In this document: piece by piece, positions 11,461 through 31,028 of the stretch | How the letters are laid out: each line of letters opens with the position of its first letter | How positions within the stretch are numbered: the first letter of the stretch is position 1 | Assembly (NCBI GenBank): GCA_050010515.1 | Contig: JBEKKX010000021.1 | Coordinates: 1-40,986 of the forward strand | Direction: 5' to 3' | Source of the DNA: Candidatus Bathyarchaeia archaeon | GTDB taxonomy: Archaea; Thermoproteota; Bathyarchaeia; Bathyarchaeales; Bathycorpusculaceae | DNA: 40,986 nt | Position numbers and translations under genes: made by a program | Notes under the pieces: generated by a model | Database searches by the model: none | Seen by the model: the letters and a program-made list of their open reading frames with translations, nothing else | What the model was told of the DNA's origin: nothing

Positions 11461-11535
11461 GGGCCGGTCGTCTAGCCTGGTTAGGACATCTGCTTGACGT
11501 GCAGAAGGTCGCCGGTCCGAATCCGGTCCGGCCCA
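11461..11535 (+). tRNA. tRNA-Val(GAC)
   Basis: GGGCCGG/CCGGCCC acceptor stem; TCTGC-TT GAC GT-GCAGA anticodon arm; T-loop reads TCCGAAT. Confidence 0.95.
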
Positions 11536-12100
11536 CCTCAAACCAATCCGAGACATTTCCTTTGGCATTGTGAGTGAGTAAATTGATTTTTAGTGATCAA
11601 AAAACGGAAAACCGAGAAACCAACAAACCAGAATGAATTTTGCTCCCGCTTCGGACCCTTTGTCTTTCGCGCGGCGCGCTATGAATCTTTGCTGAGTGCT
11701 TTTTAGGAAAGCCTGCTGATTACTTGTTATCGATTAGTAATGCATTTTTTCAGTAGAGCGTAAGCATGTGAGCACTATAAGAATTATGAGCCTTATTCTA
11801 TTGGGTTTAAGTCCTTTCCAATTTAAAATAAAAAACAAAACCTTGAAAAAATACTGCAAAAACCATTTTTAGGAACAAACATGCGCGCTTTTTGAGTGTG
11901 AGTTATAGTTTAATCGTTAAGGTTGAGAAGATATATAGAAAATTGCAATACCGAAAGGCTTTATATACCATTAATTTTTGAGAAAAATTTAAGCAATATC
12001 TTAAACTCAAAAAGTCGCGCGGCACGCTTGGTAGGTTTTATAAGTTCAGACGTTTATACAATTAGCTGTTTCTGAAAAATTTTAGGAGAAAAGACTAAAA

Positions 12101-19576: not shown

Positions 19577-19655
19577 TGCTTGACGTGTTGAGCGTAGCGA
19601 AATCCTGAACGAAGTGAAGGGCAGAAGGTCGCCGGTCCGAATCCGGTCCAGTCCA
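19577..19655 (+). pseudogene. Partial tRNA-Val copy (att site) with a 34-nt insertion
   Basis: TGCTTGACGT, then insert 19587-19620, then GCAGAAGGTCGCCGGTCCGAATCCGGTCCaGtCCA. Confidence 0.85.
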
Positions 19656-19790
19656 CCACATAATAACCTGAGACTTTTTGGGCTTCTCTGAAAAATGTGT
19701 ACCAAAAAAATGATTCATAACGATTCTAAAAAGTCTTTTTTAAAATAAATACACGCACATAACAACAACTGTAGAAACGAAGCAACTGGG

Positions 19791-26434: not shown

Positions 26435-28595
26435 CCAGATTATTTTTTGATACTTGCTGTCCGGCAGCAGGCAAGTACATTTGCTGGGTGTACTCTTTCA
26501 TCATTCGGCAAGCGCTGAAAGCGGGGGTGATTGTTTTTATTGCTTCTTTAACGATTTTCATCCATCGATGCGGTATACCCCTGCGGTCTAGGTCATAGTA
26601 GAGAGGCGCGATTTCGTTTTCGAGTAGGTTATAGAGTGATTCGGCATCTCTTTTATCTTCCTCCTCCGGGCTGCCCACCTGAAAATCGCCGATTGCCCAC
26701 CCATTTTTGCCATTGTATGCTTCATCCCACCATCCGTCGCGAACGCTAAGGTTGATTACACCGTTCATTGAAGCTTTCATTCCGCTGGTTCCACATGCTT
26801 CCTGTAGTCGTCTGGGCGTGTTGAGCCAAACATCGACGCCTCGGACGAGTTCTCGCGCTACATTGAGGTCGTAGTCTTCAACAAAGGCAATGCGCCCTTG
26901 AAATCCTCTGTCCAAAACTGCATGATATACCTGCTTGAGAAGCTGTTTTGACTGGTAATCTGCTGGATGGGATTTGCCGGCAAAAATTATCTGCAAAGGT
27001 CTCACCGAATTTGTTATTATGCGTTTTAGCCGTTCAATGTCGGATAAAACTAAGTAGGGTCGTTTGTATTCGGTAAATCGGCGGGCAAAAGCAATAGTTA
27101 AAGCGTATGGGTCTAGTAGTGAACCCATGGCAATCACTTGTTGAGTGGTAACTGCGTCTTGCGTCCAGCGTCGTTGGGCTCTGTCTTGTATGGTATTTAT
27201 CAATCGGGTTTTTAATGTTTGACGCACCTGCCACAATTCTTCGTCAGGTATGTCATCTACGCATTTCCAATATTCTTCGTCATCTTGTTTTTGAAGCCAT
27301 TCAGAACCAAGGTGCTTTTCACAGAGCCCCCTGATTTCTGGCGCTTGCCAACTGGGTAAGTGCACACCGTTAGTTATGGATACAATCGGTACCTGTTCTT
27401 CCTTCTTATCTGGCCAAAGGACCTGCCACATTCTCCGGGTTACTTTGCCGTGTAGTCTGGATACAGCGTTGGATTGACCGGATAGACGAAGCGCAAAGGC
27501 TGTAAGGTTGAATTTTCCAGGACCAAAGCCTTCATACTGTCCCAGCTTCAGGAAAGTTTCTCTATCGATTCCGAGGGGCTCCCAAAGGTTACGTGAGTAG
27601 CGGTCCATTAATTGAAAGCTGAAGATATGATGACCAGCTGAAACTGGGGTGTGAGTGGTGAAGACTGTGCATCTGCGTACGTTTTCGATGGCTGAATTTA
27701 AAGAGGCGCCGTTTGCTCGCTCTAGTCGGAGTCGTTCAAGCATCATGAAAGCCGTGTGGTCTTCGTTAACATGCCACACAACTGGCTCTATATGAAGTTC
27801 GCGCAGTGTACGCACTCCGCAAACGCCTAGAACGATTAGTTGGCGTAGCCGTTCTTCTTGGTCGGCTGTGTACAGGCGCGCTGACAACATTCTATCTTCA
27901 GGACAGTTTTCTTCAACATTAGTATCCATCAGGTATAGGTTAACGCGACCAACACGTACCTGCCACACTTTAACATACAGTTGGCGGTCGGCGAGTTGAA
28001 TCGGAATAAGAGGTCCGCATCTGTAAGGCCAAGCGCAAGGAGAGATAGGTGCATCATTGAAGTTCAGTTGTATGTAGTCTTCTTGTTGGTCTCCTTCGGA
28101 AGATATGCGCTGGCGAAAGTAGCCTTGAGGATACATGAATCCGACAGCGACTAGTGGTATCCCACGGTCCGAGCATTCTTCACATATGTCTCCTGCTAAG
28201 ACGCCCAAGCCGCCTGCATATATAGGTAGGGAATTGTGGATAGCGTACTCAGCTGAGAAATACGCGATTTGCCCATTTGGTTTGCTTGGGTTTGTTTGGC
28301 CACACCAGTCTTGACCTCTTGACATTTCTTCGTCAAACTTTAACATTACTGTGTCGTAGAGTTCTAAAAAAGCTGGATCTCTTGCCGCTGCCTCTAGCTT
28401 TTCTGTGCTGATGCTGCGCAGTTGCTTGACTGGGTTATGTTCGCTGGTTCGCCAAAGGGCATAATCTAAAGAGCGAAAAATCTGTCGTCCTTCCTCATGC
28501 CAGCTCCACCACAAGTTGTTGGCAAGCTCGAATAGTCTGCTGATTCTTGGAGGAAGCTTGGGCGATTCATTTTCTTGATTACTTGCTGAGTTCAT
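26403..28595 (-). CDS. glgP: Alpha-glucan (glycogen/starch) phosphorylase
   Basis: YAGGLGVLAGD, FTTHTP, ARRFTEYKR, EACGTSGMKA (PLP lysine). Confidence 0.95.
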   Translation of the reverse strand: MNSASNQENESPKLPPRISRLFELANNLWWSWHEEGRQIFRSLDYALWRTSEHNPVKQLRSISTEKLEAAARDPAFLELYDTVMLKFDEEMSRGQDWCGQTNPSKPNGQIAYFSAEYAIHNSLPIYAGGLGVLAGDICEECSDRGIPLVAVGFMYPQGYFRQRISSEGDQQEDYIQLNFNDAPISPCAWPYRCGPLIPIQLADRQLYVKVWQVRVGRVNLYLMDTNVEENCPEDRMLSARLYTADQEERLRQLIVLGVCGVRTLRELHIEPVVWHVNEDHTAFMMLERLRLERANGASLNSAIENVRRCTVFTTHTPVSAGHHIFSFQLMDRYSRNLWEPLGIDRETFLKLGQYEGFGPGKFNLTAFALRLSGQSNAVSRLHGKVTRRMWQVLWPDKKEEQVPIVSITNGVHLPSWQAPEIRGLCEKHLGSEWLQKQDDEEYWKCVDDIPDEELWQVRQTLKTRLINTIQDRAQRRWTQDAVTTQQVIAMGSLLDPYALTIAFARRFTEYKRPYLVLSDIERLKRIITNSVRPLQIIFAGKSHPADYQSKQLLKQVYHAVLDRGFQGRIAFVEDYDLNVARELVRGVDVWLNTPRRLQEACGTSGMKASMNGVINLSVRDGWWDEAYNGKNGWAIGDFQVGSPEEEDKRDAESLYNLLENEIAPLYYDLDRRGIPHRWMKIVKEAIKTITPAFSACRMMKEYTQQMYLPAAGQQVSKNNLVEGKEVGNTK

Positions 28596-28934
28596 AAAGT
28601 TAGGACATTCCTCTGCCGTGATATTTTTTTGAGCAAGTCAAACTAGAATAAATTTCAGGCAACTTGTGACGCAAAATGCGCATAACTTAATAGTTTAAGC
28701 GCCAACTTATATACGTTGTACGTGCAGTAACAAAGTTGAAAGTGATGGCACAGCTAAACAAGCAATCGAAGCTCATCTAGTGCCAGACATTGAGAAAGAC
28801 GAGGCGTTATTGATACATTCGGAAGCTGGTCTTTACAAAAATCTTGAGCGGGGTAGGGTATCAATTTTGTTGATGAATTTCACTAGCTAAATTGAAAGAT
28901 ATCAGTGGGAAAGCATTATTATTGCTAAGTTTTT

Positions 28935-28998
28935 GGGGTCTGTCTAAATTTCATTCTTCATCTTTTCCGATCAGACTGGGACGGCGACATCATCCCCC
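28935..28998 (-). ncRNA. Box C/D guide sRNA, predicted to guide 2'-O-methylation of 23S rRNA G2251 (E. coli numbering)
   Basis: Reverse complement: GGGGG-ATGATG(C)-TCGCCGTCCCAGT-CTGA(D')-TCGGAAAAGA-TGAAGA(C')-ATGAAATTTAGA-CAGA(D)-CCCC; terminal stem; D' guide is complementary to the P-loop CUGGGGCGG. Confidence 0.75.
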
Positions 28999-29025
28999 AT
29001 AGATAGAACAACACCCCAGTCAAAT

Positions 29026-29562
29026 ATGAACATTGTCAACGTAATGTTATGGATGAAAAGAAACGCCTATGAAGAATCAACCATTAAGAAAACTGCAAAA
29101 CTGTTAAGACACTTACAGAGAAACTGCAATACAAAAGAACCCGAAGAAGTCAAACTATACATAGCAAATAAAACGTGCGGAAATGGACACAAAGAAAACT
29201 TAGTCGAAGCTTACGCATGTTTCATTAACTCTATAGGTGCAACATGGGTACAGCCCTTTTATCAAAGATACGACAAAAAACGCAGAGCACCAAAAGAAGA
29301 ACTTGTGGATTTCCTAATCAATCACGCAAGAATAGAAATGTCTCTTAAACTATCTATAAGCAAAGATTTAGGACAACGCCCAATAGAACTAACATGGCTA
29401 ACAATCAAAGACATCGATTTAACCACAGGCATAGTCTCAATCACAGGAGCTAAACACACAATTGGCAGAGAAGGAAAACTAAAGACCTCAACATTAGGAC
29501 AATTAAGAGTCTTTGTAGATAGAAAACAACTAAAATTAACTGAGATGAAATATATTGTCTAA
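29026..29562 (+). pseudogene. C-terminally truncated tyrosine recombinase/integrase
   Basis: LGQRPIELTWLTIKDID (catalytic Arg box) and GAK (Lys) present; no HxxR or catalytic Tyr region. Confidence 0.8.
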
Positions 29563-30142
29563 ATTCATAATTCATAAGAAGCATACGCTGATTATAATTT
29601 ATGGAATTAAAATGTTCGGAAAAAGTAAAAGACAGATAAAAAATGTGACATTCGTACAACCACACGAAGGAGAGGTATATTTCTACACTCCAATAGCATA
29701 CGCCATTAATTTGCGGGATTCTAAGGAAAAAGAAGGAAAACAGGTTTTCACAGATTCTGATTTGGCACTCGCAGGTAAACTAAAGCTAATTTTTGAACGC
29801 GAAAAAATGACTTGGTTTAAAATCAAAGAGGAGAAATCAACAACAACACTAAAAGACGAACACTTTTTTGCACTGTATTATTATCCTCGTCGTTTGGTGG
29901 CGAGTCGGGCTTACTCCTCCGATGAGAAAGCTACATTGCAGGATATAAAAAAACTGTTTGATTTCATTGTTACCGAAGACCAGATTAGATTTGCAGAGGT
30001 TCAACAGACCAAATCGCCGTCAGCATATGCGCCCATCACAAGAGAGCCAAACGAAGAATCGGAAGCTATTTCTATAGTAACAGCAGAGCCAAGCGAACAA
30101 TTGCAAGCTATTCCTACAGAAACAGCGAATAAGAAGCAGTAA
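29555..30142 (+). CDS. Hypothetical cargo protein of the element (start may be the ATG at 29612)
   Basis: 195-aa ORF; no recognisable motif. Confidence 0.6.
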   Translation: MSKFIIHKKHTLIIIYGIKMFGKSKRQIKNVTFVQPHEGEVYFYTPIAYAINLRDSKEKEGKQVFTDSDLALAGKLKLIFEREKMTWFKIKEEKSTTTLKDEHFFALYYYPRRLVASRAYSSDEKATLQDIKKLFDFIVTEDQIRFAEVQQTKSPSAYAPITREPNEESEAISIVTAEPSEQLQAIPTETANKKQ

Positions 30143-30794
30143 ACTGGTGCCATCCACACAACACTCAGCGGGAACACACCCCATTAAGGGGATTCGCTCT
30201 GCGCGCGCAACGCTCTAAATTACATTCTACGATTGAATTTCTCCACCATTCTCTAAATCTTCCTCAGTAACAAAACCAAACAAATTACTTTGCCCTAAGG
30301 CTGGGACGGCAACATCATCCCCCGAAAATATCTATCAGCTCAGGATGAAATAAGCCTTCCTAAGAGCAAAGAAAAAACAGTGTGGCTATGATGGAACTTC
30401 CTGTTTCCAGATGTTACAAAAGCGAAATGAAGTTTATTAACGAGCGATTTCCAAATTTAATCGGAGAAGGCAAAGTGAATTTTAGTATTGGAAAGTGCTT
30501 TAAAGCGATTAAAAGAGCGCTCAAGAAAGAGATTTCGGATTATTATTTTACGATCTTTTCTAGAAAGGCTGGTGCGCCCATATGCATCACACTATGCATA
30601 TTAACAATCTTAGCCTATGCTGTATCACACTTATAGGAAATGAGAGTAAGCAAAGCATACACATAGTCGTATTGCAGTTTAAGCAAACGTTCCATCAAGA
30701 GCCACTAAATTTGCACAATGTACCAACATGATTTGGCAGTTTTAAATGATTTTTTCCAAAGAAAATTAAAGCTAATATATAAATTAAAAAATGA

Positions 30795-31028
30795 GTGTAT
30801 ATTTAGTTCTTGTTTTTTCTTTTTTAATGTTTTTTTTCTACATCCAAAAAAGCAGGTTTGTACATAGAAAAAGCACCATTTCATGTTGATAGTGCGGGGA
30901 TTAATTCTATGTTGAACTATGTTGAATCATATTTGAAGCATATTAGAAGCATATAGTAGACCGGGGAGTAGGCTATGAGAGCAAACAAATACCCTATCTA
31001 AGACAAAAGCCAAGAGTTAAATACATAC
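30795..31028 (-). repeat. ~230-bp dispersed repeat, copy 1
   Basis: Reverse-complement match to 37597-37825, including 46 identical nt (30917-30962 vs 37657-37702). Confidence 0.9.

Follow-up and report, generated by a model that had tools for sequence, protein, structure and literature searches.

The minus strand of the window (the whole stretch of DNA analysed, 40,986 nucleotides) carries at 28998-28935 a 64-nt C/D box sRNA that is very likely an ordinary archaeal C/D guide RNA, predicted to direct 2'-O-methylation of the 23S P-loop at the equivalent of E. coli G2251. The 5' 23 nt of the same gene probably also constitute the att site of widespread small (~4-6 kb) tyrosine-integrase elements in Bathyarchaeia, and in much of the genus the working 5' half would perhaps be element-derived. 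Judged by comparative structure, this putative role as an integrase target would be the more unusual aspect of the locus.

Anatomy of the sRNA and its predicted 23S target

The window is contig 21 of a Bathyarchaeia MAG (2.38 Mb, 66 contigs, 98.5% complete). Read on the minus strand, the sRNA has exactly the coordinates and strings that the first-pass annotation had given. Its features are collected in Table 1, together with their conservation in the genus of the host, for which 43 of the 61 genomes searched provided a locus and 42 full-length sRNAs could be parsed from these 43 loci. Internal boxes D' and C' are present, both guides are 12 nt long, a GGGG/CCCC terminal stem closes the molecule, and the total length of 64 nt lies within the ~50-70 nt expected of such RNAs. 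Boxes C and D are off consensus, as had also been noticed at the first pass (6 of 7 positions match in AUGAUGU and 3 of 4 in CAGA); both retain the GA dinucleotides needed for the sheared pairs, and a U-A pair is predicted in the K-turn in place of the usual U-U pair. Thermodynamic folding of the sRNA was not significant (z = -0.47), which is expected for a C/D sRNA.

Table 1. Position, strand and conservation of the sRNA parts and of the neighbouring element-derived features; genus counts refer to 42 full-length sRNAs
Feature	Position	Strand	Remarks
5' terminal-stem half GGGGG	28994..28998	-	pairs with CCCC 28938-28935 in the fold; genus: GGGGG 36, GGGGA 6
Box C AUGAUGU	28987..28993	-	6/7 vs RUGAUGA; identical in 42/42 genus sRNAs
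D' guide CGCCGUCCCAGU, 12 nt	28975..28986	-	identical in 40/42 genus sRNAs
Box D' CUGA	28971..28974	-	genus: CUGA 40, CGGA 2
D'-C' spacer UCGGAAAAG, 9 nt	28962..28970	-	13 variants among the 42 genus sRNAs
Box C' AUGAAGA	28955..28961	-	genus: AUGAAGA 31, AUGACGA 8, AUGAGGA 3
D guide AUGAAAUUUAGA, 12 nt	28943..28954	-	probably degenerate; candidate target 16S helix 44
Box D CAGA (CUGA variant)	28939..28942	-	identical in 42/42 genus sRNAs; CAGA in other Bathyarchaeia too
3' terminal-stem half CCCC	28935..28938	-	42/42 genus sRNAs
TATA-like AT-rich stretch UUCAUAUUUG	29021..29030	-	23-32 nt 5' of the sRNA start
Truncated tyrosine-integrase gene, 178 aa, N-terminal half	29026..29562	+	75% identity to residues 1-169 of a 330-aa homologue
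Element remnant, ~1.3 kb, between two copies of the putative att core	28999..30300		from repeats and comparison with relatives
Displaced 5' sRNA copy: GGGGG, box C, UGCCGUCCCAG	30301..30323	-	without D' box and without 3' half
Conserved element end CCUUAGGGCAAAG, directly after the displaced core	30288..30300	-	recurs in genus elements

The search for archaeal sR families in Rfam that the first-pass annotation had proposed as a check gave no C/D family at gathering score, the only hits in the whole window being two tRNAs, and a permissive scan of 28880-29050 returned sub-threshold C/D alignments only (best snoR38, 19 bits vs a gathering score of 45; sR11, 16.1 vs 39). Because the C/D models of Rfam are lineage-specific, the missing family match says little. 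Regarding the protein partners, the genes for fibrillarin (PF01269, 323.5 bits) and Nop5 (PF01798, 242.7 bits) are adjacent on contig 12 of the host genome, which also encodes L7Ae (PF01248, 100.1 bits); the C/D RNP machinery is therefore present in the host.

Neither a 23S nor a 16S rRNA of its own is assembled in the host MAG, and the rRNA targets were for that reason taken from relatives. Positions 2248-2256 of E. coli rrlH, in the P-loop, read CUGGGGCGG. In the 23S loci of six relatives, three of the same genus and three from other families of the order, the string GCUGGGGCGGCA, equivalent to E. coli 2247-2258, occurs once per 23S at the homologous place (6/6). The D' guide forms 11 contiguous pairs with it, nine Watson-Crick and two G-U, in excess of the 9 bp of complementarity expected of a C/D guide: a G-U pair at 2247, Watson-Crick pairs at 2248-2252, a G-U pair at 2253, Watson-Crick pairs at 2254-2257 and a C/A mismatch at 2258 (all positions being equivalents). 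Numbered from box D', the guide begins U1, G2, A3, C4, C5, and the fifth nucleotide, the C at 28979, stands opposite the G2251 equivalent, which is ~G2365 in the same-genus 23S that served as target. The register proposed at the first pass, with G2251 as the target and a single wobble at 2253 within the stretch 2248-2256, is thus borne out in the 23S of all six relatives.

Duplex energies were computed against a target set of 7447 nt, made up of the 37 host tRNAs and the 23S and 16S from one complete genome of the same genus. The P-loop was the best site (-23.7 kcal/mol, the next site reaching -18.1), and 1 of 60 shuffled guides equalled it. With a lenient measure that counts contiguous pairs on the same target set, 89 of 1000 shuffled guides equalled the D' guide, so that complementarity alone is only suggestive; the stronger evidence for a guide, as read from the sequences, comes from conservation.

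From this anatomy we infer that the sRNA is transcribed, assembled into an RNP and used for methylation. Within an RNP formed with L7Ae, Nop5 and fibrillarin, its D' guide would pair with the 23S P-loop (helix 80), and fibrillarin would then 2'-O-methylate the equivalent of G2251, a nucleotide that in E. coli contacts the CCA end of P-site tRNA. Archaeal double guides have also been proposed as rRNA folding chaperones, and the sRNA might accordingly pair with the P-loop to assist folding while the large subunit is assembled, without methylating it, given that catalysis could be impaired by the variant K-turn boxes and by the G-U pair two positions away from the target. This is the least probable of the alternatives considered here, as the spacing from guide to D' is exactly 12 nt, the value expected for methylation, and fibrillarin is encoded by the host genome.

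Conservation and published counterparts of the D' guide

The two genus D' guides that differ from the other 40 do so by a change in the last base only. In a wider scan, the UGAUGNNGCCGUCCCAGNCUGA pattern was found in at least 120 stretches of GTDB species genomes. Among the matches listed, 57 of 80 titles name Bathyarchaeota, Bathyarchaeia or Bathycorpusculum; the other labels among them are Thermoprotei, Acidilobaceae, Baldr-, Jord- and Njordarchaeota, Iainarchaeum, Micrarchaeota and Undinarchaeota. The non-Bathyarchaeia loci (Thermoprotei, Acidilobaceae, Asgard and DPANN labels) have canonical C, D', C' and D boxes, and their second guides differ. Three titles among the matches listed are bacterial: two of these stretches have no further boxes and look like chance matches, and the layout of the third recurs at two loci whose only label is 'archaeon'. 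Among 401 genomes sampled evenly from the phylum, a 22-nt pattern was present in 29, vs 0 for the reversed control. Since the same guide occurs in Asgard- and DPANN-labelled genomes, as suggested by the database scan, it points to an old guide.

It should be noted that position 7 of the guide (28981), opposite the G2253 equivalent, is a U in all 29 matching phylum genomes and a C in none.

Most public genomes with this sRNA bear the label Bathyarchaeota or Bathyarchaeia, and the DNA runs in which the stretch occurs come from peat and wetland metagenomes. Contig depth over 28909-28995 rose ~7-fold and ~100-fold above the flanks in two peat metagenome runs, a peak that fits many co-occurring relatives with the same short conserved sequence.

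Guides with the same core have been described. Dennis et al. (2015), in a catalogue of seven archaeal species, predicted modification of G2520 (= E. coli G2251) in three organisms (PMC4644070). The supplementary table of that work gives the guide core GCCGTCCCAG for Tte sR107, Pca sR36 and Iho sR410 and assigns Pca sR36 and Tte sR7 to 23S G2520 by prediction; three sRNAs of the supplement have CGTCCCAG and none has CGCCCCAG. According to these entries, the core GCCGUCCCAG is common to the sRNA described here and to Pca sR36 (Pyrobaculum calidifontis), Tte sR107/sR7 (Thermoproteus tenax) and Iho sR410 (Ignicoccus hospitalis), and Tte sR107, Pca sR36 and Iho sR410 all present a U to the G2253 equivalent, as here. 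The core stands directly before CUGA in Tte sR107 and Pca sR36, as it does in the window, whereas the box in Iho sR410 is GCGA. By contrast, the core is the D guide in Tte sR107 and Pca sR36 and the D' guide here, the second guides of the three published sRNAs are unlike the one found here, and the combination of box D CAGA with box C AUGAUGU sets the present sRNA apart from them. The hosts differ as well, being hyperthermophiles in the published cases and mesophilic peat or wetland Bathyarchaeia here. The guide core and its predicted P-loop target are already published for other archaea, and this locus is an additional case, by which mesophilic Bathyarchaeia of peat join the hyperthermophilic Crenarchaeota among the archaea predicted to form the P-loop Gm with a guide RNA.

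Ribose methylations common to bacteria (RlmB), organelles and eukaryotes (snR67/U31) are few, and the P-loop Gm is among them; in yeast, snR67 is the guide for Gm2619. The snR67 and U31 snoRNAs (RF01177, RF01285) are, like the sRNA described here, C/D guides for the P-loop guanosine, and in the sub-threshold Rfam alignments their guide has the same register before D'. The window sRNA is nevertheless not a member of these families, scoring 13-17 bits vs gathering scores of 37-55. Moreover, the snR67/U31 consensus GCCCCAG is fully Watson-Crick whereas archaeal guides read GUCCCAG, and the sub-threshold alignment to plant U31b likewise has GCCCCAG, that is, C opposite the G2253 equivalent; the archaeal guides seen have U at this place in every case and eukaryotic guides C. 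The same modification is listed as yeast Gm2619, human Gm4196 and Arabidopsis Gm2620 in a review (PMC11542601). RlmB and Pet56 (Mrm1) form this Gm too, at G2251 of E. coli 23S or at G2270 in yeast mitochondria; they are protein-only SPOUT enzymes without guide RNA, unlike the RNA-guided route predicted here. H. marismortui Gm1950 was dropped as a haloarchaeal counterpart, the two tables that bear on it being in conflict: Table 1 of the review equates it with E. coli Gm2251 (PMC11542601), whereas the table of the source that the review cites aligns Gm1950 with E. coli C1909 and has an empty Gm2251 row for H. marismortui (PMC2584109).

The persistence of U opposite G2253, in 29/29 phylum genomes and 3/3 published guides, could be explained if the D' guide had a target in some other RNA, either in place of the P-loop or in addition to it. 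At 16S ~121-129 (UUGGGACGG) this U would pair with an A, and the second-ranked duplex of the energy search involves a tRNA 5' end (-18.1 kcal/mol) and the fifth 16S 119-132 (-17.2 kcal/mol). We hold either target to be highly improbable, as the P-loop duplex has 11 bp and is better by 5.6 kcal/mol, the universal conservation of the P-loop fits a guide conserved across phyla, and the supplementary entries of Dennis et al. predict the P-loop site for the same guides (PMC4644070).

The second guide

The D guide has a different history. Among the 42 genus sRNAs it exists in 27 variants of 11 to 14 nt. Bathyarchaeia sRNAs outside the genus carry NCUCAUGACGG before CAGA, and strings related to it are found in loci labelled Thermoprotei, Acidilobaceae, Baldrarchaeum and Jordarchaeia. 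This ancestral D guide pairs with 23S ACCGUCGUGAGA, equivalent to E. coli 2589-2600, and its fifth nucleotide falls at U2593. A few genus genomes keep it (G050, G063, G064), and most have AT-rich strings of variable length instead. By sequence comparison, the D guide of the window is a decayed form of this ancestral 23S guide. Because the D guide has decayed from a guide to the 23S helix 93 region, the sRNA would in essence be a single-guide RNA within the genus: of the two guides that the ancestral sRNA had, one would have decayed there and the other stayed fixed. The reverse of this pattern was seen at two loci, L200 (G050) and L202 (G063), where box D' is CGGA yet the ancestral D guide GCUUAUGACGGA is kept.

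The first-pass annotation had been unable to assign a target to the second guide. A candidate can now be named: AUGAAAUUUAGA forms 12/12 pairs (10 Watson-Crick and 2 G-U) with 16S 1425-1436 (UCUAAGUUUCGU) of a same-genus genome, and its fifth nucleotide faces A1429, ~E. coli 1474, in the 3' strand of helix 44. The match was equalled by 5 of 1000 shuffled guides in number of pairs and by 0 of 60 in energy. The helix 44 site is nearly constant in 33 genus 16S sequences (32 genomes) and the D guides vary; only the window variant and a few related variants pair with it, in registers that differ by one, and most of the 19 other decayed variants score no better than their own shuffles. As the D guide is hypervariable across the genus, the candidate is doubtful, and with some 20 variants tested one match at the 0.5% level is unsurprising. 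The 12/12 match may thus be due to chance, and we consider a real 16S target for this guide rather unlikely.

Element remnants at the 5' half of the sRNA gene

The truncated integrase gene of Table 1 lies just upstream of the sRNA and reads away from it. The 330-aa homologue has the same position in a relative and matches the phage integrase family PF00589 (38.2 bits, E 1.7e-9), and two further integrase homologues match this family above the cut-off; a Pfam scan of the 178-aa window fragment gave no match. The fragment ends after residue 169 of 330 and so lacks the half with the catalytic C-terminus; the sequence behind it is filled with stops. The DNA around the TATA-like stretch derives from the element, and the stretch itself shares positions with the start codon of the integrase gene on the opposite strand. 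This arrangement beside integrase genes recurs in relatives, and from its sequence and place the stretch could be the promoter of the sRNA.

A partial copy of the sRNA is found 1325 bases to the right of it, the repeat pair (28964-29005 vs 30289-30330) being 79% identical. On the minus strand, 30323-30296 reads GGGGGAUGAUGU UGCCGUCCCAG C CUUA, and likeness to the sRNA is lost by ~30288. The first-pass annotation had regarded this truncated copy as the better match to the archaeal P-loop flank, which it took to be consistent with this copy being the original 5' end of the host gene. The copy does pair better, with 11 Watson-Crick pairs and one G-U at -25.3 kcal/mol vs -23.7 for the D' guide of the sRNA, and it does stand where a displaced host 5' end would be expected. 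The better fit is, however, no evidence of an original host guide, since the last base of the copy, C, is the first base of the element end CCUUAGGGC. The U at guide position 1 of this copy recurs in some other loci; in Bathyarchaeia this position is free to vary, all four bases (C, U, A, G) being found there.

The same structure is repeated in relatives. All nine other genus loci examined show, in order, a partial 5' copy, a conserved end, cargo, an integrase trace (undetected in one) and the full sRNA. A direct repeat of the core thus flanks the element in the window and in 9/9 genus loci, and an integrase lies beside the sRNA in 8/9; its ORF is 285-315 aa long in six loci, a fragment of 91-98 aa in two, and undetected in one. 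Directly after the core stands CCUUAGGGC in the window and in 8 of the 9 other genus elements, and CCGUAGGGC in the ninth; CAAAGUAAUUU mostly comes next in these nine elements, and is followed by 3-5 kb of largely unannotated cargo. Of eight cargo proteins scanned with Pfam, the only matches above cut-off were HTH_17 and a DDE transposase, with HVO_A0114 sub-threshold (22.9 vs 27.6 bits). At one locus, L223 (G003:C1:1099500-1108000), there are three copies of the core and the integrase on the sRNA side is a 98-aa C-terminal fragment; the three copies indicate two elements in tandem at the sRNA gene.

With the junction of core and element end as the search pattern, 80 metagenome loci that carry it were retrieved. 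Sixty of them extend at least 500 nt upstream; integrase fragments were found upstream in 9 of these 60, and an intact integrase or an intact attP form in none. A search of viral contigs with an attP-type junction pattern gave 0 matches, and contigs of four DNA runs over 28300-30900 contained no excision joint across the insert; one contig from another study covers 28867-30900 unchanged. Loci of the sRNA without integrase trace occur in other Bathyarchaeia, and none was an empty site matched by its flanks.

From this repeated arrangement we infer integrase-mediated recombination at the site. The att core would be the 5' 23 nt of the sRNA gene, comprising the stem, box C and the guide up to CCCAG. 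On insertion, an element would supply a promoter and a 5' copy of the sRNA, so that an intact sRNA would be restored beside the integrase gene, and the former 5' part of the host gene would end up at the opposite end of the element. The element in the window would since have shrunk by decay to 1.3 kb, in which half of the integrase gene is left. As part of the same reading, and with the same good probability, the elements would exploit a sequence that is frozen by its complementarity to the universally conserved P-loop. The invariance of the D' guide in the genus may stem in part from elements that re-supply the 5' half.

The organization is close to that of archaeal elements in tRNA genes with an intact (pNOB8-type) integrase. 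In these too, a tyrosine recombinase lies beside one att end, part of a small RNA gene is present as a direct repeat, and the gene is rebuilt by the element copy. They differ in their target, pNOB8-type elements using tRNA genes and the present elements, by our reading, the 5' part of a C/D sRNA gene. If this reading is true, the locus provides an archaeal RNA-gene att site other than a tRNA gene, and a methylation-guide gene as integrase target would add C/D sRNA genes to the known RNA-gene att sites. No published C/D sRNA gene serving as att site was found in the literature searched, subscription journals and bioRxiv supplements lying outside the search; the words 'sRNA' and 'snoRNA' are absent from a 2021 review of archaeal tyrosine recombinases, and C/D sRNA targets are mentioned neither in a paper on Thaumarchaeota iMGEs nor in one on a provirus.

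The duplication of the 5' half by elements in 9/9 other genus loci could also mean that the sequence is kept only as a DNA att site copied by integrase elements, the RNA being either not made or unable to guide. Non-consensus boxes and a decaying D guide would agree with such a role, as would the finding that none of the runs listed as containing the stretch is an RNA run. We nevertheless consider this very unlikely, since conservation reaches into the element-free 3' half, where D' is CUGA in 40/42 genus sRNAs and C' AUGANGA, D CAGA and the terminal CCCC are present in 42/42. Furthermore, the same guide and canonical boxes are found in lineages without a nearby integrase trace, an integrase trace and an upstream inverted repeat are both missing at 51 of 101 loci, and the same core occurs in three published C/D sRNAs (supplementary table, PMC4644070). 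These observations favour a gene that encodes a guide RNA and that would, in addition, be used as an att site.

The inverted repeat just mentioned is a motif that resembles the reverse complement of the D' guide (ACTGGGACGRTG), found between the TATA-like stretch and the 5' end of many copies of the sRNA. It is present with at least 9/12 matches in 36 of 101 loci, ~1 being expected by chance according to a hand-worked binomial estimate. In this set of 101 loci, from which loci with less than 600 nt upstream were excluded and in which some places were fetched twice and relatives are non-independent, 17 have both the repeat and an integrase, 19 the repeat only, 14 an integrase only and, as stated above, the remainder neither, so the motif is only loosely tied to integrase traces. 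The window motif (29009-29020) is degenerate and unpaired with the guide in the fold; clearer copies stand 10-25 nt upstream of the sRNA 5' end in L019, L027, L055, L075 and others. The motif could be an integrase arm site.

A second repeat of this general kind was noticed elsewhere in the window. The 3' part (11495-11558) of the tRNA-Val(GAC) gene at 11461-11537 is repeated at 19615-19678, 8.1 kb downstream, with 83% identity over 64 nt, and the pair resembles in sequence what is seen at an integration site. No integrase was found among ORFs of at least 120 aa. Four ORFs were scanned, three inside the island between the repeats and one just beyond the right repeat: they comprise a papain-family protease, a TrmB/CBS regulator, one ORF without match, and a 1308-aa protein with a sub-threshold match to a KaiC-type ATPase (24.5 vs 26.6 bits).
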